The notes below the pieces were generated by a model. It saw only the letters and a list, made by a program, of their open reading frames with translations, ran no database searches and was not told where the DNA came from. Shown here piece after piece: positions 1 to 13,785 of a stretch of 38,146 bases of DNA (position 1 is its first letter; the number at the start of each line of letters is the position of its first letter). The translations under genes were made by a program, and so were the position numbers. The stretch lies in IMG/VR virus record IMGVR_UViG_2695420714_000020; one strand, 5' to 3'. The stretch comes from a virus (lineage: Duplodnaviria; Heunggongvirae; Uroviricota; Caudoviricetes).

Positions 1-1053
1 TTACGGGGTAATGCCAACCGCTGCCGCCACTTTGTCGCCACTTGGCAGCGTTGCCAGAGGATTGAAACGGAGCGCCGTTTCCAGATGATCCGGTGCCAGA
101 TGAGCGTAACGCATAGTCATTTTTATATCGTGATGTCCGAGGATTTTTTGCAAAGCAAGGATATTTCCACCCGACATCATGAAATGCGCCGCAAACGTAT
201 GGCGCAGAACGTGTGTCAGTTGACCGCGAGGGAGCACGATTGACGTTTTTTCCATCACGGATAAAAATTGAAAATAGCAGTCTGTGAAGAAATTGAACCC
301 ATCAAGCGCCATGATCTCTTCATAAAGCTCTTTACTGATAGGGATGCTTCTGTTTTTCTTCCCCTTCGTTCTTACAAAGGTAATTCGGTATTTAGTCACC
401 TGTGATCGGGTAAGGTTTATTGCTTCTCGCCAGCGTGCGCCTGTGCTTAAGCATATCTTGACTACCAGTGCCAGAATTGGGTCCTGACGTTTGCAATCAG
501 CCAGCAGTTCAACAATCTGCTCATGGGTAAGCCATGCCATCTCTTTTTCTGCGATGGTGAATTTTCGCATGTTCTCCAGTGGGTTTGGATACGACCATTC
601 GCCCAGGCGGGATAGTTCGCTAAAAACACTACTTAGATAGCTTTGCTCCAGGTTAATGGTGACCGGGCTTGCTCCTTTCTTCCATTTCTCGCTGAAGTAG
701 ATCTCACCTGTCAGGCGTTTATCTCGATAGTGGGCAAACATTTTAGAGGTGAGATCGGTTGCAAGGGGATTGCCCAGAGCGTCAACCATCAACAGCAATT
801 TATCATAGACATGCTGCCCAGCGGTTAGAGATTTACCATGTAGTTTGAACCATAGCTCAACCACGTCTTTCAGTGTTCGACGATCCACTGATTCTCCCAG
901 CCAGGGCTTTGCTTCGGTTTCTTCCATCGTATGGCGCTCAAAAGCCAGAGCTTCGCCTTTGGTGGCGAATTGTTTACGCACACGACGCCCACTACGTCCG
1001 GCGGGGTAACATTCGCAAAGCCATTTTCCTGTGGTGAGTTTTCGTACTGCCAT
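1..1053 (-). CDS. int: Tyrosine integrase (P2/186-like site-specific recombinase)
   Basis: ORF 1..1131 on the minus strand; likely true start is MAVRKLTTGKW (ATG at 1053). C-terminal catalytic region HVLRHTFAAHFMMSGG...HHDIKMTMRYAHL fits the tyrosine recombinase R..HxxR..Y signature. Stop codon at 1..3. Confidence 0.9.
   Translation of the reverse strand: MAVRKLTTGKWLCECYPAGRSGRRVRKQFATKGEALAFERHTMEETEAKPWLGESVDRRTLKDVVELWFKLHGKSLTAGQHVYDKLLLMVDALGNPLATDLTSKMFAHYRDKRLTGEIYFSEKWKKGASPVTINLEQSYLSSVFSELSRLGEWSYPNPLENMRKFTIAEKEMAWLTHEQIVELLADCKRQDPILALVVKICLSTGARWREAINLTRSQVTKYRITFVRTKGKKNRSIPISKELYEEIMALDGFNFFTDCYFQFLSVMEKTSIVLPRGQLTHVLRHTFAAHFMMSGGNILALQKILGHHDIKMTMRYAHLAPDHLETALRFNPLATLPSGDKVAAAVGITP
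19..40. repeat. attL core: left copy of 22-bp direct repeat CGCTGCCGCCACTTTGTCGCCA
   Basis: Same 22-mer with one mismatch (C/T at position 12) recurs at 35292..35313, just after ogr. The left copy lies inside the last codons of int, as expected for an att core next to the integrase 3' end. Confidence 0.6.
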
Positions 1054-1239
1054 AAAAAATGCCCTCCAATAGAGAGCATTTTTACTGTGTGTATAACCAG
1101 TGTCAATGTATGAAATCCTGCGACCATACATCTCACTGAAGCCATAATGAAGTTGGCTATTTTTTGCTATGTGAGTATGTGACTTTTGCGGTTAGCCTGC
1201 GGCTCATTGTTATATTAGGCGCAGATATAAAAGCAAAAT

Positions 1240-1446: not shown

Positions 1447-2022
1447 TTACCTAACGTACTTAATTGTTAAACTTATAATTTTCCCAATTATTTCAACATC
1501 TTCTATCTTGCACTCGAAGGCTCTGTTTCCACCTTCAACGAAGATTCTTCCACCGGGTAAACGAGTAATGTCGCGGATTGTTATTTCGCCATCAATACTT
1601 ATTACCCATTTACCGTCACGTATATCATCAAATTCTTTATCACAAATAAATTCAGAATTGTTATCTGTGATGACAAAAGGTTTTTTAAACGTAGAGGGTA
1701 GAAATCCCTTATCAAAAATATAAAAACCGTCTTCACGCAAGGCACCATCAGATAATACATATTTAGCAACTTCCATAGTATTTGTATTACCTGAAGTTTG
1801 CTTTGAACCATGTCCGGTTGTGAGCCAATTAAGCGAGGTGCCCGTTTCAAGGGCGCACTGGATTACCCATTCTGCTGGGAATGAGTCACGCATGTAGCGT
1901 GTGGCGAGTGTACTTTTAGAGATTCCTAAATGATCGCACAACGCCTGTCGAGTTTTGAATCCATAAGCTTCTACCATGCGCTCTATAGCGCCTCGTCCGC
2001 CTTTCTCCAAATTCATGGTCAC
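1447..2022 (-). CDS. cI: CI-type immunity repressor (phage 186 CI-like, two-domain)
   Basis: 191 aa, N-terminal helix-turn-helix-like region (QALCDHLGISKSTLATRYMRD), leftward next to int and divergent from the early lytic operon. Size and layout match 186 CI rather than the ~99-aa P2 C. Confidence 0.75.
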   Translation of the reverse strand: MTMNLEKGGRGAIERMVEAYGFKTRQALCDHLGISKSTLATRYMRDSFPAEWVIQCALETGTSLNWLTTGHGSKQTSGNTNTMEVAKYVLSDGALREDGFYIFDKGFLPSTFKKPFVITDNNSEFICDKEFDDIRDGKWVISIDGEITIRDITRLPGGRIFVEGGNRAFECKIEDVEIIGKIISLTIKYVR

Positions 2023-2040
2023 TCCAAGTGAACTTTTATC

Positions 2041-2069
2041 TTGACGATTTCACTGTGCGATCGTATGTT
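2041..2069 (+). promoter_or_regulatory. Candidate early lytic promoter pR (TTGACG-N17-TATGTT), flanked by GTGAAC/GTTCAC inverted half-sites
   Basis: Sigma70-like -35/-10 with 17-bp spacer in the cI/apl intergenic region. GTGAAC (2028..2033) and GTTCAC (2076..2081) flank it; TTCAC recurs at 2049..2053. Confidence 0.4.
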
Positions 2070-2141
2070 TATGGTGTTCACAAAATACAAACGATCCGTA
2101 TTCGTCCTGATTAATCATCATTAAACGAGGAATGTTGCATC

Positions 2142-2363
2142 ATGAGACCTAACATTTCAATCACTCTTACCACGCCTCATGTGACTATTGAACGCTATAG
2201 CGAGCTGACAGGGCTGTCCATCGATACCATCAATGACATGTTGGCTGACGGACGCCTTATCCGTCACCGTCTGCGCAAAGATAAAAAACGTGAAAAAGTG
2301 ATGATCAACATAGCAGCCATGACCGTTGATGCGCTTTCAGAATGCAATCTAAACCTTAATTAG
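2142..2363 (+). CDS. apl: Apl/Cox-like excisionase and transcriptional regulator (first gene of early lytic operon)
   Basis: 73-aa basic protein at the position of 186 apl / P2 cox; ATG preceded by ACGAGG ribosome-binding site. Confidence 0.55.
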
Positions 2364-2395
2364 TTCGATTCTGAAATACATCAGAGGCATTGACC

Positions 2396-2905
2396 ATGTT
2401 TGATTACCAAGTTTCCAAACATCCACATTTTGATGAAGCCTGTCGTGCATTCGCATTGCGCCACAACCTAGTGCAACTGGCAGAACGTGCAGGCATGAAT
2501 GTGCAGATTCTGCGGAACAAGCTGAACCCAGCTCAACCTCATTTATTAACCGCACCAGAAATCTGGTTGCTTACCGATCTGACTGAAGATTCAACGCTGG
2601 TAGATGGCTTTCTGGCACAGATTCACTGCCTGCCATGTGTACCGATTAATGAGGTGGCAAAAGAGAAACTGCCGCATTACGTCATGAGTGCAACTGCAGA
2701 GATAGGGCGTGTCGCGGCAGGTGCGGTTTCTGGCGATGTAAAAACCAGTGCAGGCCGTCGTGATGCGATCAGCAGCATTAACTCTGTTACACGACTGATG
2801 GCGCTGGCTGCTGTTTCATTGCAGGCCCGTTTACAGGCTAATCCTGCGATGGCGAGTGCAGTTGATACCGTGACTGGCCTCGGTGCTTCATTCGGTTTGC
2901 TGTGA
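2396..2905 (+). CDS. cII: CII-like lysogeny establishment regulator (186 CII-like)
   Basis: About 169 aa from ATG 2396 (the ORF track start at 2390 is TTG). Position directly after apl; size matches 186 CII. Confidence 0.55.
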
Positions 2906-2912
2906 GGTGCTT

Positions 2913-3113
2913 ATGCTGACGAAAGAACCATCATTTGCATCGCTGCTGGTAAAACAAAGTCCGGCAATGCACTACGGTCACGGCTGGATCATGGGTGAGG
3001 ATGGTAAACGCTGGCATCCGTGCCGTTCACAAGATGAATTGCTGGCAGAACTATCTACGAAAAAACGGGGGAACAAATGGCTATTGAAGGCGCTGCGGCG
3101 ACTGTTCCATTAA
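2913..3113 (+). CDS. Hypothetical early protein (66 aa from ATG 2913)
   Basis: ORF in the early operon overlapping neighbours; no recognisable motif. Occupies the position of 186 fil/dhr-class genes. Confidence 0.4.
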   Translation: MLTKEPSFASLLVKQSPAMHYGHGWIMGEDGKRWHPCRSQDELLAELSTKKRGNKWLLKALRRLFH

Positions 3114-3418
3114 GACCCGGTGAACGCCTGAATGGACTTAATCATATTGCGGAGTTAAGGGCGAAAGTTTTTGGTTTGAATATTGAGTCAGAGCTTGAGC
3201 GGTTTATTAAAGATATGCGTGATCCTCGGGATATCAATAATGAACAAAATAAACGGGCACTGGCTGCCATATTCTTTATGGCAAAAATTCCAGCTGAACG
3301 TCATTGCATCAGCATTAATGAGCTGACCACTGACGAAAAGCGGGAGTTGATTAAAGCAATGAATCATTTTCGTGCAGTGGTGAGCTTATTTCCCAGACGG
3401 CTAACCATGCCGAATTAA
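3077..3418 (+). CDS. Hypothetical early protein (113 aa)
   Basis: ATG start overlapping the previous ORF; co-oriented in the early operon. Confidence 0.45.
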   Translation: MAIEGAAATVPLRPGERLNGLNHIAELRAKVFGLNIESELERFIKDMRDPRDINNEQNKRALAAIFFMAKIPAERHCISINELTTDEKRELIKAMNHFRAVVSLFPRRLTMPN

Positions 3419-3485
3419 CCAACTAATGAAATTAATGGCGTAAACCCGCCGGGCATCCCTTTATCTAAATTCAGGAGAATTGCTT

Positions 3486-3719
3486 ATGCGTAATATTGAA
3501 ACCCTCACGACCAAAACCGGACCGGATGATGCAGGTCTTAATCTTTTACTGACAGAGGCTCGTCTGGAAGAACGCCGGGCAAGGGCTGAAGCAATGGCTG
3601 CTCGCCTCGATAGCCTGGCGTGTCATATCACCTCCCGCCAGCTAAACCACGTCGAAGCGGCAGAACTGCTGCGTGTGACTGCTGAAGCAATCCAGAACGA
3701 AGCGCAGGAGATCCACTGA
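3486..3719 (+). CDS. Hypothetical early protein (77 aa from ATG 3486)
   Basis: AGGAG ribosome-binding site at 3473..3477; Ala/Arg-rich helical-looking protein; its stop overlaps the next start. Confidence 0.45.
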   Translation: MRNIETLTTKTGPDDAGLNLLLTEARLEERRARAEAMAARLDSLACHITSRQLNHVEAAELLRVTAEAIQNEAQEIH

Positions 3720-3946
3720 TGGCTGATGCAATGGATCTCGTACAGCAGCGCGTTGAAGAAGAACGCCAACGCCATATCCGTGCTGCCCGTGCCAAAACGC
3801 CGGGCGTGTCCCGCGTGCTTTGCGTTGAGTGTGAAGCGCCAATTCCGCCAGCACGCCGCCGTGCCATTCCGGGTGTGCAGCTTTGCATTACCTGTCAGGA
3901 AATCGCAGAGCTGAAAGGCAAACATTACAACGGAGGTGCTGTATGA
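3719..3946 (+). CDS. TraR/DksA-family C4 zinc-finger protein
   Basis: 75 aa with CVECEAPIPPARRRAIPGVQLCITCQ (CxxC-N17-CxxC), typical of phage TraR/DksA-like zinc fingers. Its 3' end overlaps the dam start. Confidence 0.7.
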   Translation: MADAMDLVQQRVEEERQRHIRAARAKTPGVSRVLCVECEAPIPPARRRAIPGVQLCITCQEIAELKGKHYNGGAV

Positions 3947-4797
3947 GCACCATCCTGAAATGGGCAGGAAATAAAACCGCCATAATGTCCGAACTGAAAA
4001 AGCATCTTCCTGCTGGCCCGCGACTGGTTGAACCTTTCGCGGGTTCCTGTGCAGTGATGATGGAGACGGATTATCCCAGCTATCTTGTTGCGGATATTAA
4101 TCCTGATTTAATCAACCTCTATAAAAAGGTTGCTGCTGATTGTGAGGCGTTTATATCTCGTGCCAGAGCTTTATTTGAGGAAGCAAACAGGGAGGTGGCT
4201 TATTACAACATAAGGCAGGAGTTTAATTACTCCACTGAAATTACTGATTTCATGAAAGCGGTATATTTCCTGTATCTCAATCGTCACGGTTACCGTGGTT
4301 TATGTCGCTATAACAAGAGCGGGCATTTCAACATTCCCTACGGTAATTATAAAAATCCGTATTTCCCTGAAAAAGAAATTCGCGCATTTGCAGAGAAAGC
4401 CCAGCGGGCAACGTTTATCTGCGCCAGCTTTGATGAAACGCTGGCGATGTTGAAGGTGGGGGATGTGGTGTATTGCGATCCGCCTTATGACGGTACGTTT
4501 TCCGGCTATCACACTGATGGTTTCACTGAAGATGATCAGTATCACCTGGCATCCATTCTTGAACATCGGTCATCAGAAGGACATCCGGTCATTGTTTCTA
4601 ACAGTAACACGTCTTTGACCCGGTCCCTTTATCGTAATTTCACTCACCACTACATCAGGGCGAAACGCAGCATCGGCGTTGCAGCGGGGGAGGGAAAATT
4701 TGCAACAGAGATGATTGCCACTAAATCTGCTAATTGGTTTAGTGCCGATTTTAGTAGGGGACGTGACTCTACTGTTATTTTCGGGGTGCAAGTGTGA
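3943..4797 (+). CDS. dam: DNA N6-adenine methyltransferase (Dam/D12 class)
   Basis: Start [11 protein letters not shown] at ATG 3943 (in frame with ORF-track start 3883). Motif I PFAGSCAV and motif IV DPPY present. Confidence 0.85.
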
Positions 4798-4802
4798 AAG
4801 AA

Positions 4803-5624
4803 ATGCACCACGGAATTCATCATTTCCATGGGACGCCTGTCTGGGGAAGTGCTGGCGACGTTCATCGTATTGCGGTGAGCGGAGCTGGCGCTTTCGTCTC
4901 CTATGTACGGCCAGATCAGATTGCGGCGTCCATTCAGCACGCTCAGGTCGTCGGCATTGATAACGGCGCATTTTCTGCATGGGTGCGTGGGCTAAAAATT
5001 AACTGGAGTGATTTTTATAAATGGCTCCTGAACTATTACCACCATCCTAAGGTCGCTTTTTTTGTCATTCCTGATGTTGTGGACGGAGGTGAACGTGACA
5101 ATGATGCCCTGATAAACGAAGTTCCGAAAATGTTCTACGGGAAGGCAACTCCCGTCTGGCATCTGCACGAGTCAATCGATCGGCTTATCGAGCTATGTCG
5201 TGAATGGCCTCGTGTCTGCTTTGGATCTTCTGGTGAATATGCGGCTATCAGAACTGCGCACTGGCATCGTCGTATGCAGGACGCTTTTGAAGCAATTTAT
5301 TGCCGACACAATTTCAAAACAGCTGTTCATGGTTTGCGCATGCTTGACGGTCGTGTGTTGGGAAATTACCCACTGGCGACTGCCGACAGTACAAATCTTG
5401 CCTGCAATGTCCCCAAATTTAATAGCAAATATCCTGAGCTGACGCGGGCTATTCAGGAGGCTGAGTATTCGCGCAATCTGACGGAAAAGGAGCTGAAAGC
5501 TGTCATTCTGAAAAACCGTTGCGCAATTTTAAAAGGTGCAATTGAAGCTGTTCGCCCACCTTCAGTTTCTGATTGGCTGTCGAATGGTTTGCAGCCTTCA
5601 CAGCTCGAACTGGAGATTGCGTAA
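4803..5624 (+). CDS. Conserved hypothetical protein coupled to dam and gpA; possible TGT/DpdA-like fold (unverified)
   Basis: GTG 4794 overlaps the dam stop (GTGA); first ATG at 4803; its stop TAA overlaps the gpA ATG (TAATG). Motifs IDNGAF and [11 protein letters not shown] resemble, from memory, the DSGGF and FDE regions of tRNA-guanine transglycosylases; no zinc-binding Cys cluster. Confidence 0.5.
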
Positions 5625-7996
5625 TGAACTACAGCTATTCCTGGAATGCTGAGAAAAAAGCAATCAATCCTTACGTAGAGACAGAAGAGCAATCTTCAGT
5701 TTCTGCGCTTTCAAACCTGATCGCTCTGTACGCTGCCGATAACGAGCAGGAACAGCTGCGCCGCGAGGCACTGAGTGATCAGGTCTGGGAGCGTTATTTC
5801 TTTAATGAATCCCGTGATCCTGTCCAGCGCGAAATGGAGCAGGATAAGCTCATTAGTCGGGCAAAGCTGGCGCATGAGCAGCAGCGTTTTAATCCAGATA
5901 TGGTCATTCTGGCGGACGTCAATGCCCAGCCTTCCCATATCAGCAAGCCGCTGATGCAACGTATTGAATACTTCAGCAGCCTGGGCAGGCCAAAGGCTTA
6001 TTCCCGCTATTTGCGTGAGACGATTAAGCCATGTCTGGAACGGCTGGAGCATGTACGCGACTGTCAGCTATCCACTTCTTTTCGCTTTATGGCAAGCCAT
6101 GAAGGGCTGGACGGCCTGCTGATCCTGCCTGAAATGAGTCAGGATCAGGTGAAACGCCTGTCCACCCTGGTAGCTGCGCATATGAGCATGTGCCTTGATG
6201 CAGCTTGTGGCGATTTGTATGTCACCGATGACGTTAAGCCAGAAGAAATCCGCAAAACATGGGAAAAGGTGGCAGCGGAAACCCTGCATCTGGATGTCAT
6301 CCCGCCTGCGTTTGAGCAACTCCGCCGGAAAAGAAACCGCCGTAAACCCGTGCCCTATGAACTCATTCCGGGTTCGCTGGCGCGTATGTTGTGCGCTGAC
6401 TGGTGGTACCGGAAATTATGGAAGATGCGTTGCGAATGGCGGGAAGAGCAGTTGCGTGCTGTCTGCCTGGTCAGCAAAAAAGCATCTCCCTATGTCAGCT
6501 ATGAAGCCGTGATGCATAAACGTGAGCAGCGCCGTAAGTCGCTGGAGTTTTTTCGTTCTCATGAACTGGTGAACGAAGACGGCGACACGCTGGACATGGA
6601 GGATGTGGTAAACGCCAGCAGCAGCAACCCTGCGCATCGCCGCAATGAGATGATGGCCTGTGTTAAAGGCCTGGAGCTTATCGCGGAAATGCGCGGTGAC
6701 TGCGCCGTTTTCTACACCATCACCTGTCCGTCACGTTTCCATTCCACGCTAAATAATGGCAGGCCCAACCCAACTTGGACAAATGCGACGGTAAGACAAA
6801 GCAGTGATTATCTGGTCGGCATGTTTGCTGCATTTCGTAAGGCGATGCACAAAGCCGGATTGCGGTGGTATGGCGTGCGGGTGGCTGAGCCGCATCATGA
6901 CGGTACAGTTCACTGGCACCTGTTGTGTTTTATGCGCAAAAAAGACCGCCGCGCCATCACTGCATTACTGCGTAAGTTTGCCATCCGTGAAGACCGCGAG
7001 GAACTGGGCAATAACACTGGGCCGCGCTTTAAGTCTGAGTTGATTAACCCGCGCAAAGGTACGCCAACAAGCTACATCGCGAAATACATCAGTAAGAACA
7101 TTGACGGGCGTGGTCTGGCTGGCGAGATCAGCAAGGAAACGGGGAAATCCCTGCGTGATAATGCTGAATACGTTAATGCCTGGGCGTCTCTGCATCGTGT
7201 TCAGCAATTCCGCTTCTTTGGCATTCCGGGGCGTCAGGCTTACCGTGAACTGCGATTGCTGGCTGGTCAGGCGGCAAGGCAACAGGGGGACAAAAAAGCA
7301 GGTGCGCGGGTACTGGATAACCCGCGCCTTGATGCCATCCTGGCTGCTGCTGATGCTGGTTGTTTTGCTACCTACATCATGAAGCAGGGCGGCGTACTGG
7401 TTCCCCGCAAATATCACCTCATCAGAACCGCTTATGAAATCAACGAAGAGCCGACCGCCTATGGCGATCACGGCATTCGTATTTATGGCATCTGGTCACC
7501 TATTGCAGAGGGCAAGATCTGCACTCATGCCGTGAAGTGGAAAATGGTTCGTAAGGCCGTTGATGTTCAGGAGGCGGCAGCCGACCAGGGCGCTTGCGCC
7601 CCTTGGACTCGTGGCAATAACTGTCCCCTTGCTGAAAATTTGAACCAACAGGAGAAAGATAAATCAGCTGATGGGGACCCCAGAACGGACATTACCAGCA
7701 TGGATGACAAGGAGTTGCACGATTACCTGCACAGTATGAACAAAAAAGAGCGCCGGGAACTGGCTGCAAGGGTACGCCTGGTGAAACCGAAACGGCGTAA
7801 AGACTACAAACAGCGAATTACAGACCATCAGAGACTGCAGCTCGTCTATGAGCTGAAGTCCAGAGGATTTGATGGTAGCGAGAAAGAGGTCGATTTACTC
7901 CTTCGCGGCGGCAGTATTCCGTCAGGAGCAGGCCTGCGTATCTTCTATCGGAACCAGCGTTTGCAAGAAGATGATCAGTGGCGGAACCTGTATTAA
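5624..7996 (+). CDS. A: Replication initiation endonuclease gpA (rolling-circle nickase)
   Basis: 790 aa from ATG 5624; P2 A-like size and position, with central region [11 protein letters not shown]...[12 protein letters not shown]. Start overlaps the stop of the upstream gene. Confidence 0.85.
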
Positions 7997-8090
7997 TTTC
8001 GCGGGTTAACAATTCGTGCTCTTAATAATACCAGGCATATCAGGCTGATGAACGTAAAAAAACGTTTTACATCAGTAAGATTATTATATA

Positions 8091-8106
8091 CTGTAAATAT
8101 AAACAG
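8091..8106. promoter_or_regulatory. LexA (SOS) box CTGTAAATATAAACAG
   Basis: Perfect CTGT-N8-ACAG palindrome 45 bp upstream of the 8151 start, overlapping a candidate -10 (TATACT 8087..8092). Confidence 0.7.
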
Positions 8107-8150
8107 TAGTTATACATACAGTATTGCGTGTGGTGTCATAGGAGGAAAGA

Positions 8151-8338
8151 TGCAGGACTATTTTTTGGAGTCTTTGAAGCTCCAGCGCATTGATTTTTTT
8201 CTTAAGCTTGTAGCGGCTAGTGAGTGTAGTGATGAAGAGAAGGGGCTGGCTCTGCAGTGGGTTTCTGAATTGACTGATGAACTCATGGCAAAAATCAGAA
8301 CCCACGAATACAACCGCTCAATGGATGTCATCAGCTGA
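8151..8338 (+). CDS. SOS-inducible small protein, candidate Tum-like antirepressor (62 aa)
   Basis: Strong ribosome-binding site AGGAGG before ATG 8151; downstream of the LexA box; located after gpA as tum is in 186. The ORF-track N-terminal extension (8048) would cover the promoter, so the shorter start is used. Confidence 0.5.
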
Positions 8339-8348
8339 GGTGACTTTT

Positions 8349-8582
8349 ATGCGCATTGAAATAATGATCGATAAAGAGCAGAAGATTAGCCAGTCTACCC
8401 TGGACGCCCTTGAATCCGAGCTTTACCGCAATCTGCGCCCCCTGTATCCCAAAACGGTAATTCGTATCCGTAAAGGTAGCTCTAACGGTGTGGAACTGAC
8501 CGGACTGCAACTGGATGAAGAAAGAAAACAAGTGATGAAAATTATGCAGAAGGTGTGGGAAGACGACAGCTGGCTGCATTAA
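8349..8582 (+). CDS. DinI-family protein (77 aa)
   Basis: MRIEIMIDKEQ...ALESELYRNL...GLQLDEERKQVMKIMQKVWEDDSWL parallels E. coli DinI (MRIEVTIAK...ETWESADDW) in length and motif order. Second gene of the LexA-boxed operon. Confidence 0.7.
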   Translation: MRIEIMIDKEQKISQSTLDALESELYRNLRPLYPKTVIRIRKGSSNGVELTGLQLDEERKQVMKIMQKVWEDDSWLH

Positions 8583-8591
8583 GAAACGTTG

Positions 8592-8619
8592 CCCCCAAGA
8601 GGATTTATCCTGTTGGGGG
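8592..8619 (+). terminator. GC-rich hairpin after the tum/dinI-like operon (CCCCCAAGAGGAT-TT-ATCCTGTTGGGGG)
   Basis: 12 of 13 bp stem immediately after the stop at 8582; weak T-tract afterwards (GAGTTTGGG). Confidence 0.4.
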
Positions 8620-9070
8620 GAGTTTGGGCAACGAGTGAAATGAGGTGTAAGGTGGGCGGTCATTTTGATAAGTGATCGTCCACTTTGTGTCAGAACCTGA
8701 TGTTTGTTGTACATTCGGACGAATAGGCGGCGTTGTTTGCTTTAAAAATAAAACAGGAACACTTTGAGAAAGTGAACAGGTGTATTTATTTGTTGCTGAT
8801 GAATGAGAGTAACTCTAATTTGGATAATTAGCTTGATAATAGGTCAGACGAAAATAATATTCCAGCACACTTTTGGTCGCAACAGGCATTAGTTAATTTT
8901 AAGTGATAAATTTTTATCCATAAATTAACACTAGTGTGTCATCTAGCGAAACCGAATCGCTTTAACTCATAACTTGAAGTTGAATCAGTGGGGTAGCAGT
9001 AGGCATGCCGGAACTGATAAACTGTGCAGAAGGCTAAACATTCATTCACTCGTGAGATAGTAGCTAAATT

Positions 9071-9937
9071 ATGCAAAGAATTATTCCTGATAAAAATTGG
9101 TGGGAAAAAGAGCGTATTAATCGTAAAGCATCATCAATATGCCCATATGCTAGTTCATACAGATGTCCTCGATACTATCAGAGTGTAGTTTTGCTCTCAA
9201 GCATCAATGTGATAGCTGGTATGGCAACTAGGAAAGAAAAAGAGTTGGGTGAATTTTGGGAAAGAACCACTTTCTCATCTTTATGTGATGAAGAAGTCCC
9301 TACAGTTACTACAAAAGAATATGGCGGCCTTGCATCAGTTAGTAATTTTTGCCCAGAAATATCATTTAGATATTTACACTACTACGCCGATTATATGTGT
9401 AAATATGTTGATGAGATAGATCAGGACACTGGCAGGCGTATTGCGGAAAAAGATAATTTAGAAAATGATTGGAAATATACATGGATGTCAGTCAATCCTA
9501 AATTTTATTTAGATTGCGATGTTTTTGAAAGTGTCAAAAATTTCAATGAAGAATTGGCTAGTGATTACTTAAAAAGATTGCACCCAAATATCGTTCAGCA
9601 AATAGATAGAATGAATAATTGCTTGGATAATAATGATCCGGCAGGTGCACTGCACGCAGCCTCTAATATTTTAGAAACTATGGCTAAGGAAATCACTCAA
9701 AACCCGAATGTGGCAAATGAGTCATTGGGTGGTTTTTTTAAACAGTTCGAAAAAATGTCAAAATTACCTAAGAATCTTATTGATGCTGTTAAAGATATTT
9801 ATGATTTACGCAACAAATTACCTACTGCTGGACACGGAAGCTTGAACAAGCCTGAATTGACTATGGTAGAAGCTATAACTATTGCGGCAATGACAAAGGC
9901 GATTTTAGAAATTGAATATCGAAGCAAAGCCATCTAA
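9071..9937 (+). CDS. Orphan accessory protein, 288 aa, unknown function
   Basis: AT-rich ORF in the accessory region after about 430 bp of AT-rich non-coding DNA containing the palindrome GATAAATTTTTATC. No motif recognised; weak ribosome-binding site. Confidence 0.55.
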   Translation: MQRIIPDKNWWEKERINRKASSICPYASSYRCPRYYQSVVLLSSINVIAGMATRKEKELGEFWERTTFSSLCDEEVPTVTTKEYGGLASVSNFCPEISFRYLHYYADYMCKYVDEIDQDTGRRIAEKDNLENDWKYTWMSVNPKFYLDCDVFESVKNFNEELASDYLKRLHPNIVQQIDRMNNCLDNNDPAGALHAASNILETMAKEITQNPNVANESLGGFFKQFEKMSKLPKNLIDAVKDIYDLRNKLPTAGHGSLNKPELTMVEAITIAAMTKAILEIEYRSKAI

Positions 9938-10186: not shown

Positions 10187-10840
10187 TCATTTCGATGATT
10201 GATCCAGATGTGTATATAACCATTGAAAGAGTTTTCTAATTTTTGTGATAGTATCTTTTAAATAATTTAAGGAGATTATTATATTATTTTCATTGTTTAA
10301 TGAAAGAGTAGGTGTTTTATCAATGATATTTTTTAAGGCTACAGCTGTGCTCATTTTTTTAATGTCTCCATTAGCATGAACTATGCAATTCCTTACTTTG
10401 TTAAACTCTGTCATGAATTGCCACTCTTGTGACAGGCCAAAGTTTATATCCATTAATTTTGTTAAATATCTTTTTGCTTTGTGGATGCCATCACCATTAA
10501 AATCGGTTACTGATATATTGGTGTTTACAATCCTTTGACATATATTGCAATAGTCGTTTAGGTTGTGCTCTAAGCATGAGTATAAAGATACCAAAGCAGA
10601 TTTATTAAAAATATTTGGTTGTATGTTAACTAAGAAATCATATTGCTCTGAATAATAGTCTTCTAAGTAATTAATATAATCGTCAGGAGCATTCTTTTTT
10701 TCATCTTCATATGCTTTTTTTAATTCCGCTAAGTTAACTCTGTTTTGGCCGCCTGCTCCTAGGATATATTTTTCGAAATCATCAATCTGCGCTTCAAGTG
10801 AATATCTTGATAGCTGTGCGAAAAGTTTGTATTTACTCAT
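10187..10840 (-). CDS. Accessory protein, 217 aa, with candidate HEPN motif (RNCIVH)
   Basis: AT-rich ORF convergent with 9071..9937. Residues 150-155 RNCIVH match the R-x4-6-H HEPN signature in its common RNxxxH form. Confidence 0.55.
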   Translation of the reverse strand: MSKYKLFAQLSRYSLEAQIDDFEKYILGAGGQNRVNLAELKKAYEDEKKNAPDDYINYLEDYYSEQYDFLVNIQPNIFNKSALVSLYSCLEHNLNDYCNICQRIVNTNISVTDFNGDGIHKAKRYLTKLMDINFGLSQEWQFMTEFNKVRNCIVHANGDIKKMSTAVALKNIIDKTPTLSLNNENNIIISLNYLKDTITKIRKLFQWLYTHLDQSSK

Positions 10841-11270: not shown

Positions 11271-12920
11271 ATGTTAGTCAAGAAAAATAAAAATTATAGT
11301 TTATATTTTTTAATTACAAATAATCAACAGATATCTGATTCTGGTAATTATATAAAAATAGTCCCATCAAGAAGCGATTGGAATGATTTTGGATATTTGA
11401 GTAGAGTCGAAATATCTATTTTTAATAAAAAAGAGTGTAAGGATATAATTTCACTGAATGGTTATATTGGTTTTTTGAATTCAGAGGAGGAACGAAATGG
11501 AAAAGCAGAACTGATAAGGCGAGTGAAGAAAAAGGAAGAATCTAATTTAAAGGATGAGGGGTTTAATGATTATTTTGTCATGCTTCAGGATATGAATAAT
11601 TATCGAAGACTAGTAAGATTTTTTGGGGTGAATGAATCCAAATATATATTAAATTTCATTAATGATGTTGTTTCTAAGAAAAGTGACGCTAGTGCAGAGA
11701 ATTTGAGGAAAAAAGCAATCTCTTCTGATATCTTTAATAAATCTTTCATTAGAGAGTCTGAGTCGTATTTTACTTTCAAAAATGCAGGAACAGTTCTTTC
11801 CGGTATTCAATATGAGGAGTTGGGTAATTTATCACAGCACATCAAGATTAGCTATTCGAATAAAGTTAATGAAGAAGATGTATCTTATGTTTTTAATTTT
11901 GATCACGAGCATGATTTACCAAAAAGAATTTCCATAATTATAGGCGAGAATGGTGTAGGAAAAAGCCAAACGCTTAGAGAAATCGCATTGGCTGCGATTA
12001 AAGGAAAGGATAATTTGGTGGCTGTAGTTGATTCTAACGGTGTGAGCATTGAAGAACGAATTCAAATTAGTAGGCTCATTGCTTTTTCTCCAACAAATGA
12101 AAGTAAGTGTTCATTTCCAACCGATAAAAGAATAAAATCATTGATATGGTACAAAAGATTGACTTTAAATCGTGAATCAAAATCCAAATTAAACTTGAAT
12201 GATTTAATAGTGCAACTAGCGAGGAGTAACGACGCTATCGGCTATAATCAAAGGTGGAATATATTTGTTGATGCACTGAGTGTTCTAAATAGTAACAACG
12301 ATTTAGTAATCAAATGTAGCGGTGAAAATTCACCATTTGTTAAATTAAATGAGCTTAATTCTCGAGGCGAAGAATCCAGACTATCATTATATTCTGAAAT
12401 TATTCTCTCTGGCGAGCCTTTGAGGCTTGTTGAAAATAAATGTTACCCTTTGAGTAGTGGGGAAATATCGTTTATTAAGTTTTGTGTACAAGTCTGTTTG
12501 TATATTGAGAATGGGACTCTTCTATTAATAGATGAGCCAGAAACACATCTCCATCCTTCATTTATTAATAAATTTATGGCATTGCTTGATAATTTATTAG
12601 AAAAGACAGGCTCTTCAGCTATCATAGCAACGCATTCGGTTTATCTTGTTCGGGAGGTTTTTAAGGAGCAAGTGACAATACTCAGAAGACGAGATGATGG
12701 GGTAATTGTTAGCGAAAAACCGAGATTGAGTACTTTTGGGGCGAATATAGGAAATATCTCATATTTTGTTTTCGGTGAGAGTGAACCAACTCAAATTTTA
12801 AATAAAGTAAAAAATAATATAATTGCAAAGAATATGTCTTGGGATGATGTTGAATCTAAATATAGCGAGGACTTATCACTTAATGTATTAACTGCGTTGA
12901 GAAATGAAATAGGTAATTGA
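11271..12920 (+). CDS. ABC-type ATPase with ~215-aa N-terminal extension (candidate defense ATPase, PtuA-like)
   Basis: 549 aa. Walker A GENGVGKS (aa 225-232), ABC signature LSSGE (394-398), Walker B LLLIDEPE (417-424), H-loop ATHS (453-456). N-terminal 215 aa have no recognisable motif. AT-rich. Confidence 0.7.
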   Translation: MLVKKNKNYSLYFLITNNQQISDSGNYIKIVPSRSDWNDFGYLSRVEISIFNKKECKDIISLNGYIGFLNSEEERNGKAELIRRVKKKEESNLKDEGFNDYFVMLQDMNNYRRLVRFFGVNESKYILNFINDVVSKKSDASAENLRKKAISSDIFNKSFIRESESYFTFKNAGTVLSGIQYEELGNLSQHIKISYSNKVNEEDVSYVFNFDHEHDLPKRISIIIGENGVGKSQTLREIALAAIKGKDNLVAVVDSNGVSIEERIQISRLIAFSPTNESKCSFPTDKRIKSLIWYKRLTLNRESKSKLNLNDLIVQLARSNDAIGYNQRWNIFVDALSVLNSNNDLVIKCSGENSPFVKLNELNSRGEESRLSLYSEIILSGEPLRLVENKCYPLSSGEISFIKFCVQVCLYIENGTLLLIDEPETHLHPSFINKFMALLDNLLEKTGSSAIIATHSVYLVREVFKEQVTILRRRDDGVIVSEKPRLSTFGANIGNISYFVFGESEPTQILNKVKNNIIAKNMSWDDVESKYSEDLSLNVLTALRNEIGN

Positions 12921-12921
12921 A

Positions 12922-13785
12922 ATGAATAAATTAAAAAGACCTGTTTTTAAAGATTATTCTGCATTTAAAAAACTATCTGCAAATAAGAGATTAAAACATC
13001 ATTCTGTTCTGAATGGACAGGATACATTTATACTTAATGCATATAGATCGTACATAAAGAATAAAGGATATCTTAATGTCAATTCTTGTGGCGTATTGAG
13101 TAACAATATTGCTGAAGCTTTGAAATATTATTATAACAATCCCGCAAAGTGTTTATCTATAATTGATGATATAAGAGCAGCTAATTCTAACTCTCTATGT
13201 CCAATGTGTGGTTCAATGCATAGCGGGACTTTGGATCATGTTTTACCCAAGGAAAACTATCCAGAATTTTCTTTATTCACTAAGAATTTGGTTCCTGCTT
13301 GCAAATGTAATACTTTCAAAAGTACTACTATAGCTAATTCTGCAGGCCATCGGATGCTGCATCCATATTTTGATAATATATTAAAACAAAGATTAATATG
13401 TGCTAATTTTTCTAAATTAGGGCGAACACCTACAATTGATGTAAAAATCATAATTGACCCAATGTCACCAGAATATAACAATGTTAAGTATCATCTTGAT
13501 AATGTTGTTATCAAGAATAATATTAAGGGGTATTTGTCTGAACAATGGGAGTCGTTTTACTTATATCCTGAGCTTGTTATTAGAGGACTGAATAAGAGTC
13601 TTTCTACTTATAGCGATGTATATGAGTTGTTGACTCGCGAGTTGTTGCTGTTGGATGAAAAACATAAAGGTAAAAATAATTGGAATTCGGTTTTTGTAGC
13701 TGGGTTAATTCGACCTGATGTGATTAGGTGGATACTCTGTGAATTACATTTAGGTAACAGAAGTCCAGACGGTCGTCTCATATGA
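12922..13785 (+). CDS. HNH-motif nuclease (candidate effector, PtuB-like)
   Basis: 287 aa. CPMCGSMHSGTLDHVLPKENYPEFSLFTKNLVPACKCN (CxxC...DH...N...CxC, aa 93-130). ATG is 1 nt after the ATPase stop, so the two genes are coupled. Confidence 0.65.
   Translation: MNKLKRPVFKDYSAFKKLSANKRLKHHSVLNGQDTFILNAYRSYIKNKGYLNVNSCGVLSNNIAEALKYYYNNPAKCLSIIDDIRAANSNSLCPMCGSMHSGTLDHVLPKENYPEFSLFTKNLVPACKCNTFKSTTIANSAGHRMLHPYFDNILKQRLICANFSKLGRTPTIDVKIIIDPMSPEYNNVKYHLDNVVIKNNIKGYLSEQWESFYLYPELVIRGLNKSLSTYSDVYELLTRELLLLDEKHKGKNNWNSVFVAGLIRPDVIRWILCELHLGNRSPDGRLI

Follow-up and report, generated by a model that had tools for sequence, protein, structure and literature searches.

A hypothetical-protein gene between dam and the replication initiator of an Escherichia coli P2/186-like prophage is predicted to encode a phage DpdA

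What does an open reading frame of 276 codons (ORF276), set between an adenine methylase gene and the replication initiator gene of an Escherichia coli prophage, encode, and what does its place in the gene order signify? The window analyzed here (the whole 38,146-nucleotide stretch of IMG/VR virus record IMGVR_UViG_2695420714_000020) is an E. coli prophage of 186/P2-like (Eganvirus-like) type, and the E. coli copies of ORF276 are always annotated as 'hypothetical protein' in RefSeq. An initial annotation, made from the sequence alone, had suggested with low confidence that the product resembles tRNA-guanine transglycosylases (TGTs) and the DpdA DNA transglycosylases that install 7-deazaguanines. 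We consider it likely that ORF276 is a phage DpdA, that is, a minimal zinc-free DNA-guanine transglycosylase with the TIM barrel of the TGT superfamily, which belongs to the 'DpdA-only' group of gamma-proteobacterial phages and would produce low levels of dADG (2'-deoxy-7-amido-7-deazaguanosine) or dPreQ0 (2'-deoxy-7-cyano-7-deazaguanosine). The DpdA family and its chemistry are already established and the DpdA-only group is already catalogued, ORF276 being an unannotated member; the gain is therefore one of annotation, with a possible model system, rather than a discovery.

Family assignment and predicted active site

Compared with PHROGs, ORF276 falls into phrog_887, 'queuine tRNA-ribosyltransferase' (E 2.4e-96, aa 2-275), a family that also includes the validated phage 9g DpdA (2e-98) and its counterparts from MED16, 7-11, BTP1 and SEN1 (SEN1_38). 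A profile of 74 ORF276 homologs aligns by hhalign with 9g DpdA at Prob 98.1% (E 9.7e-14). Among 1.84 billion cluster representatives searched, 555 related clusters were found, typically 220-270 aa long and with a conserved core at aa 10-207. SEN1 (YP_009217891) was listed by Hutinet et al. 2019 as a DpdA-only phage (PMC6884629 Suppl. Data 1), a category that is the largest phage group in that study and the least understood (PMC6884629). The gene is real and constrained, as evidenced by strong purifying selection between ORF276 and its Enterobacter ortholog (nonsynonymous divergence pN 0.10 vs synonymous divergence pS 0.72).

Residue conservation was read from an alignment of the 74 homologs, which extend down to 28% identity. 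Invariant positions are D56, D94, H123, H179, D198 and S199; N57 and A59 reach at least 90% conservation. The two motifs on which the first suggestion had leaned are both found in ORF276, IDNGAF at aa 55-60 and the other at aa 89-99, and each holds an invariant aspartate (D56 and D94, respectively). In the hhalign register, D56-NGAF is paired with LDSGAFS of 9g (DSGAF), VH179G with VH196G, and AD198ST with CDSS. ORF276 accordingly carries the DxGxF acid/base motif of bacterial DpdA (D95...F99) as D56-N-G-A-F60, and D198-S199 and H179 occupy the positions of the nucleophile (D256 in bacterial DpdA, D248 in Cap10) and of the DpdA1 histidine (His196 in 9g). Assignment to DpdA2 was considered and rejected, as ORF276 keeps in H179 the histidine that DpdA2 lacks; according to Hutinet et al., DpdA2 is without the His196 of 9g DpdA. 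The family assignment follows from the profile and PHROG matches together with this active-site register, the fold by itself being only suggestive of the TGT superfamily. The low-confidence proposal of a TGT/DpdA-like protein thus gains support from phrog_887, the profile match to 9g, the invariant D56, D94 and D198, and the listing of the SEN1 ortholog.

The 276-aa protein does lack the TGT zinc cluster, as first noted: the CxCxxC zinc motif is absent from ORF276, from all 74 homologs and from 9g DpdA. We rejected the missing cluster as an argument against DpdA because 9g DpdA and all 74 homologs are also without it; the zinc site and the insertion Ins8 are hallmarks of TGT and of bacterial DpdA, not of phage DpdA1. 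An AlphaFold2 model built from the alignment (pLDDT 93.8, pTM 0.89) consists of eight beta/alpha units, forming a TIM barrel at aa 9-205, followed by C-terminal helices at aa 214-275. In this model the invariant residues all sit at the C-terminal strand ends, the usual position of a TIM-barrel active site, with D94 just after strand 4. Foldseek comparison agrees with the TGT/DpdA-like fold implied by the initial annotation, in that a TIM barrel is predicted and the top match in the PDB is an archaeosine TGT, with DpdA fourth, although these PDB matches are weak. Against BFVD there are 30 matches at E<=1e-3, many of them named phage queuine tRNA-ribosyltransferase. Unrelated TIM barrels fall behind by only a modest margin, and in structural comparison Cap10 is the best match, with a score barely above that of bacterial DpdA (15.4).

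Proposed chemistry and alternative readings

The catalytic roles proposed here are taken over from bacterial DpdA (D95 as acid/base, D130 in base recognition, D256 as nucleophile; PMC10164549) and from Cap10 (catalytic pair D248/H226; bioRxiv 2025.04.06.647259). By this homology, D198 paired with H179 would attack C1' of the target deoxyguanosine and displace guanine, giving a covalent enzyme-DNA intermediate, while D56 would act as general acid/base, D94 would read the base and F60 would stack on it. A free 7-deazaguanine base, either 7-cyano-7-deazaguanine (preQ0) or the QueC intermediate 7-amido-7-deazaguanine (ADG), would then resolve the intermediate, the base being supplied by FolE-QueD-QueE-QueC of the host. 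The earlier suggestion that preQ0 is drawn from the host fits with the lack of preQ0-synthesis (que) genes in annotation scans of the window proteins and with a near-universal host queC, which occurs in 5425 of 5426 complete E. coli genomes and is the one pathway gene checked. The remainder of the preQ0 pathway in E. coli is established knowledge. Because the gene lies within the CI-repressed early lytic operon, where it would share a transcript, and probably translational coupling, with dam (upstream) and gpA (downstream), DpdA production would be confined to infection or induction, at the time of phage DNA replication. By analogy with MED16 and 7-11, the product would be low dADG and/or dPreQ0 at ~0.02-0.3% of G, which for a genome of ~33 kb amounts to between a few and a few dozen modified guanines. 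The deazaguanine would coexist with Dam methylation, the likely purpose being to escape some of the host's restriction or defence systems.

Relatives of ORF276 were found by tblastn in 105 phage genome records. The closest phages are the Salmonella P2-like SI22 and SEN1 (75% identical), in which the gene occupies the corresponding slot directly upstream of gpA, and identity declines to 55% for MED16 DpdA, 35% for 7-11 DpdA and ~20% for 9g DpdA. MED16 DpdA, whose closest viral homologs are SW9 gp39 and SEN1 gp38, has an HHpred match of 99.18% to the TGT 2ASH, and MED16 DNA contains dADG at ~0.13% of G and N6-methyldeoxyadenosine (m6dA) at ~0.27% of A (PMC8306585). DNA of Salmonella phage 7-11 contains 50 dADG per 10^6 nt (~0.02% of G), and 9g DpdA alone in E. 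coli puts dPreQ0 into plasmid DNA from host preQ0.

Several observations weigh against assigning ORF276 to a DNA-modifying DpdA. Direct sequence methods (Pfam, PDB sequences, hhalign) do not reach TGT or bacterial DpdA: ORF276 has nothing in Pfam beyond a noise match of 0.19 and no match in NCBIfam or PADLOC, none of the 74 homologs matches PF01702 (Pfam scan, E<=1), phmmer and the 74-sequence hidden Markov model return only noise from PDB sequences (GCN4, a coat protein), and hhalign of the 74-sequence profile against the single E. coli Tgt gives Prob 0.3%. The PF01702 negative carries no weight for ORF276, because in a control scan this model gave 560 bits for E. coli Tgt but no match for validated 9g DpdA, and the other empty searches were discounted on the same ground. 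Whether D94 corresponds to the base-recognition aspartate (D130 in bacterial DpdA, D156 in TGT) is ambiguous, as it pairs with a serine of 9g DpdA, whose own aspartate comes 3 residues later. DpdA-only relatives modify very few guanines, at the 0.02% and 0.13% of G given above, and dADG in MED16 gave no visible protection from the restriction enzymes tested (PMC8306585). Mycobacteriophage Orion, another DpdA-only relative, has no modified guanine, though its host lacks preQ0 synthesis. Both 7-11 and MED16 contain dADG, not dPreQ0, though they are without a DpdC-like enzyme, and the direct measurements of 7-deazaguanine come from these two relatives and not from P2-like members. The initial claim that the phage carries two anti-restriction modifications is too strong on these grounds: a second modification can be expected by analogy at a low level and perhaps as dADG, and strong anti-restriction protection by ORF276 is doubtful.

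Such low levels, and the unprotected DNA of MED16, could also mean that ORF276 is a DpdA homolog whose modification is negligible and irrelevant, its real role being, for example, DNA binding or base flipping for gpA replication, or guanine exchange without net modification. The start/stop overlap with gpA is kept in E. coli, Enterobacter and Salmonella P2-like phages, and phiSM DpdA1 is inactive in E. coli, both of which favour this view; however, all catalytic residues are invariant, purifying selection is strong, adjacency to gpA is missing in BTP1, 7-11 and MED16, and a few sequence-specific modified sites could still block one defence system. We therefore regard a role of this kind as unlikely. 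Similarly unlikely, if not slightly more so, is that the singleton DpdA clade inserts ADG instead of preQ0 directly at a few specific sites, and that the coupling to gpA (and here to Dam) serves a site-specific epigenetic mark for replication or packaging, or for evading one defence, not bulk anti-restriction. Direct insertion of ADG would explain why 7-11 and MED16 have dADG without a DpdC-like enzyme, and it would explain Cap10 as the best structural match, because Cap10 binds an amide-linked 7-deazaguanine.

The likeness to Cap10 bears equally on the reading that ORF276 is a TGT-superfamily enzyme with a non-DNA substrate, either Cap10-like on a 7-amido-7-deazaguanine-protein conjugate, perhaps countering a type IV cyclic-oligonucleotide-based antiphage signalling system (CBASS), or on tRNA. 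The Asp/His pair of Cap10 (D248/H226) resembles the invariant D198/H179, and the DNA base of DpdA-only phages is the amide ADG, the nucleobase that Cap10 binds. Against this stand the very small excess of the Cap10 score over that of bacterial DpdA and the content of the window, in which neither a Cap9/QueC-like protein nor a CD-NTase was found (in Cap10 operons the CD-NTase bears an N-terminal M(G/S)G(G/S)GG motif); moreover, the sequence relatives are phage DpdAs, 7-deazaguanine has been measured in the DNA of two such phages, and ORF276 has neither a PUA or other tRNA-binding module nor a TGT match in Pfam. We find a non-DNA substrate improbable. Least probable of all is a generic TIM-barrel metabolic enzyme whose TGT-like motifs are coincidental: the empty Pfam, NCBIfam and PDB sequence searches would be expected of it, but the phrog_887 and 9g profile matches, with active-site motifs in register, argue otherwise, and the Pfam TGT negative is weightless given that validated 9g DpdA fails likewise. 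A phage DpdA acting on DNA at low level is thus the reading that we prefer.

Gene chain, neighbourhood and distribution

The prophage is ordered as integrase, CI, CII/CP76, DUF5347, DUF2732, TraR, dam, ORF276 and gpA (Table 1); a cargo region and the late genes come next. Host genes for a ybjL-like permease and ybjM flank the prophage. A 3-kb stretch spanning the ORF276 locus is 100% identical to several E. coli chromosomes. The dam product scores 318 bits against the NCBIfam model TIGR00571 dam (cut-off 114.85), matches the Pfam D12 methyltransferase family (PF02086) and contains 'CDPPYDG' in its translation.

Table 1. Coordinates of the early-region features of the prophage in the window
Feature	Coordinates	Strand	Evidence or remark
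Integrase	1..1131	-	
CI repressor gene	1447..2022	-	
Sigma-70-like site adjoining the CI gene	2041..2069	+	Consensus match only (9/12); position relative to CI and CII
DUF2732 early-operon gene	3480..3719	+	PF10809 4e-29
TraR/DksA-type C4 zinc-finger protein, 75 aa	3719..3946	+	PF01258 zf-dskA_traR 4.4e-11; phrog_54 1.8e-30
Dam-family N6-adenine DNA methyltransferase, 284 aa, DPPY motif	3943..4797	+	PF02086 2e-76; TIGR00571 4e-95; PADLOC orphan MTase 6e-110
dpdA (ORF276), DpdA1-like 'singleton' DNA 7-deazaguanine transglycosylase (predicted)	4794..5624	+	276 aa from GTG 4794, or 273 aa from ATG 4803
gpA rolling-circle replication initiator/nickase, 790 aa	5624..7996	+	PF05840 Phage_GPA 3e-128; phrog_91 7.6e-287

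Reading of the junctions confirms the chain of TraR, dam, ORF276 and gpA that had been described at the outset, including its overlaps of the dam TGA with GTG 4794 and TAATG at 5622..5626. The TraR stop (TGA, 3944-3946) overlaps the dam start (ATG, 3943-3945) in ATGA at 3943-3946, the dam stop (TGA, 4795-4797) overlaps the ORF276 start (GTG, 4794-4796) in GTGA at 4794-4797, and the ORF276 stop (TAA, 5622-5624) overlaps the gpA start (ATG, 5624-5626). One gene further upstream, DUF2732 and TraR overlap in TGATG at 3717-3721. Shine-Dalgarno-like motifs (AGGAG, GGAGG, GGGGT, GGAG) lie 6-8 nt before each downstream start. In an Enterobacter hormaechei prophage the ortholog (84% identical) stands in the same chain of TraR, dam, ORF and gpA; it overlaps each neighbour by 4 nt, and its GTG start likewise falls on the dam stop. 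Salmonella phages SEN1 and SI22 keep an ATGA overlap with gpA and have ATG at the alignment column of the ORF276 GTG. Conservation of order and overlaps in Enterobacter, and of the gpA overlap in SEN1 and SI22, argues that the chain is not due to chance. The overlaps point to a shared transcript and probably to coupled translation, but do not establish equal stoichiometry; that the protein is expressed stoichiometrically with the methylase and the nickase, as initially proposed, was inferred rather than shown by them. NCBI's annotation pipeline PGAP starts the ORF276 product at ATG 4803 (273 aa, P0001); we favour GTG 4794 as the true start, given its conserved position and the upstream GGGGT, though these do not prove it.

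The site at 2041..2069 is probably the early (pR-type) promoter of the operon containing dam, dpdA and A, judging from its sequence. In a promoter and terminator scan of 1900-9100 the site total was not above the shuffled expectation, which neither supports nor contradicts a single operon. A weak terminator-like hairpin at 4752..4774 (+), with 8 pairs, 3 of them G-C, and followed by TTATTTTC, falls within dam, at its 3' end, shortly ahead of the dpdA start. It could modulate dam-dpdA coupling, and is probably a chance occurrence, because such sites are no commoner than in shuffled sequence.

The link between dam and dpdA is narrower than the chain in this prophage might suggest. dam precedes dpdA in E. 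coli and Enterobacter prophages, and to that extent the claimed chaining holds; it fails as a feature of the family, since SEN1 and SI22 have a 92-aa phrog_154 ORF in the place of dam. In BTP1, 7-11 and MED16, dpdA is found in other early or DNA-metabolism contexts and not beside a gpA-type initiator, although MED16 has an N6-methyladenine (m6A) methylase 1.2 kb upstream of dpdA. An obligate dam-dpdA pair was therefore rejected, and the pairing is better seen as lineage-specific than as a system, given the two phages without dam and the differing contexts elsewhere. Nor is the link to gpA a family property, because dpdA of BTP1, 7-11 and MED16 does not adjoin such an initiator.

ORF276 DNA is present in 107 of 5426 complete E. 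coli genomes (~2%), including the laboratory strain ATCC 8739, APEC O78 and UMNK88, nearly always at >=99% identity, and related P2-like early regions occur in ~1245 genomes. The copies in ATCC 8739 and APEC O78 are 99.6-99.8% identical to it. Two homolog clusters from public assemblies contain fusions: P0011 joins dam aa 1-192 in frame to DpdA aa 49-276, and P0121 joins approximately the first 150 DpdA residues (from ATG 4803) to unrelated sequence, possibly a late-gene product. Both look like deletions of prophage decay. A group of shorter DpdA paralogs (~250 aa, ~40% identical over aa 10-206) is found in Salmonella prophage BTP1 (3495..4250), SfI, SPN3UB and HK106-type prophages. In these P22-like and lambdoid prophages the genes occupy the ea/early-left region, with ead/Ea22-like and DUF550 genes as neighbours; temperate phages of enterobacteria thus commonly carry DpdA-only genes.

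The cargo between gpA and the portal gene includes a two-gene candidate defence system at 11271..13785 (+), consisting of a 549-aa AAA_21/ABC-type ATPase and a 287-aa partner (PADLOC PDC-M01A 2e-55 and PDC-M01B 8e-34, with weaker PtuA-like matches). Two further cargo ORFs, at 9071..9937 (+; 288 aa) and 10187..10840 (-; 217 aa), have no Pfam match; the 217-aa product has a weak HEPN-like match in PADLOC (RTasHEPN, 1e-5) and the 288-aa product no match at all.

The assignment offers a functional name for a gene that RefSeq leaves hypothetical in ~2% of complete E. coli genomes, and places a DpdA in a genetically tractable, inducible P2/186-like E. coli prophage for which host que mutants are ready to hand. 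Such a prophage would be a convenient system for questions about the DpdA-only group, namely which base is used (preQ0 or ADG), in which DNA motif, to what benefit of the phage, and how dADG arises without DpdC. The answers bear on defences such as GrwAB and the Dag glycosylases, which depend on modification and have recently been found to act against DNA containing deazaguanine.

Comparison with known systems

ORF276 is a reduced protein beside the cellular members of the superfamily. TGTs (bacterial, archaeosine and QTRT1; PF01702) have a zinc subdomain and tRNA-binding domains, whereas ORF276 is without both and is ~100 residues shorter. The bacterial DpdA of the S. Montevideo Dpd system (7UI4) has 413 aa, insertions Ins1-3 and Ins8, and a CXCX2CX22H zinc site, none of which is shared by the 276-aa ORF276; the bacterial system also needs the DpdB ATPase, and DpdC makes its dADG, whereas no DpdB- or DpdC-like genes are present in the window. 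Cap10 of type IV CBASS (9NTN) works with Cap9 and an NDG-modified CD-NTase within a defence operon of bacteria, whereas the neighbours of ORF276 are TraR, dam and gpA.

Phage enzymes are closer. The DpdA1 proteins of 9g and CAjan, of which that of 9g is a validated preQ0-DNA transglycosylase, share with ORF276 the PHROG, the DxGAF motif, the histidine (His196/H179), the nucleophile D-S and the absence of CxCxxC. These two phages encode their own FolE, QueD and QueE as well as (Gat-)QueC and modify 25-32% of G, in contrast to the ORF276 prophage, which encodes none of these enzymes in the window. The nearest counterparts are SEN1 gp38/SW9 gp39, MED16 gp38 and 7-11 gp032, gamma-proteobacterial singletons of the 'third group' of DpdA-only phages, which like ORF276 belong to PHROG 887. 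The DpdAs of SEN1, MED16 and 7-11 also have in common with it a length class of 234-276 aa, the invariant D, D, H, H and DS, and a phage genome without preQ0 genes. What sets ORF276 and its Enterobacter relative apart from SEN1 and SI22 is that they are additionally chained to dam.

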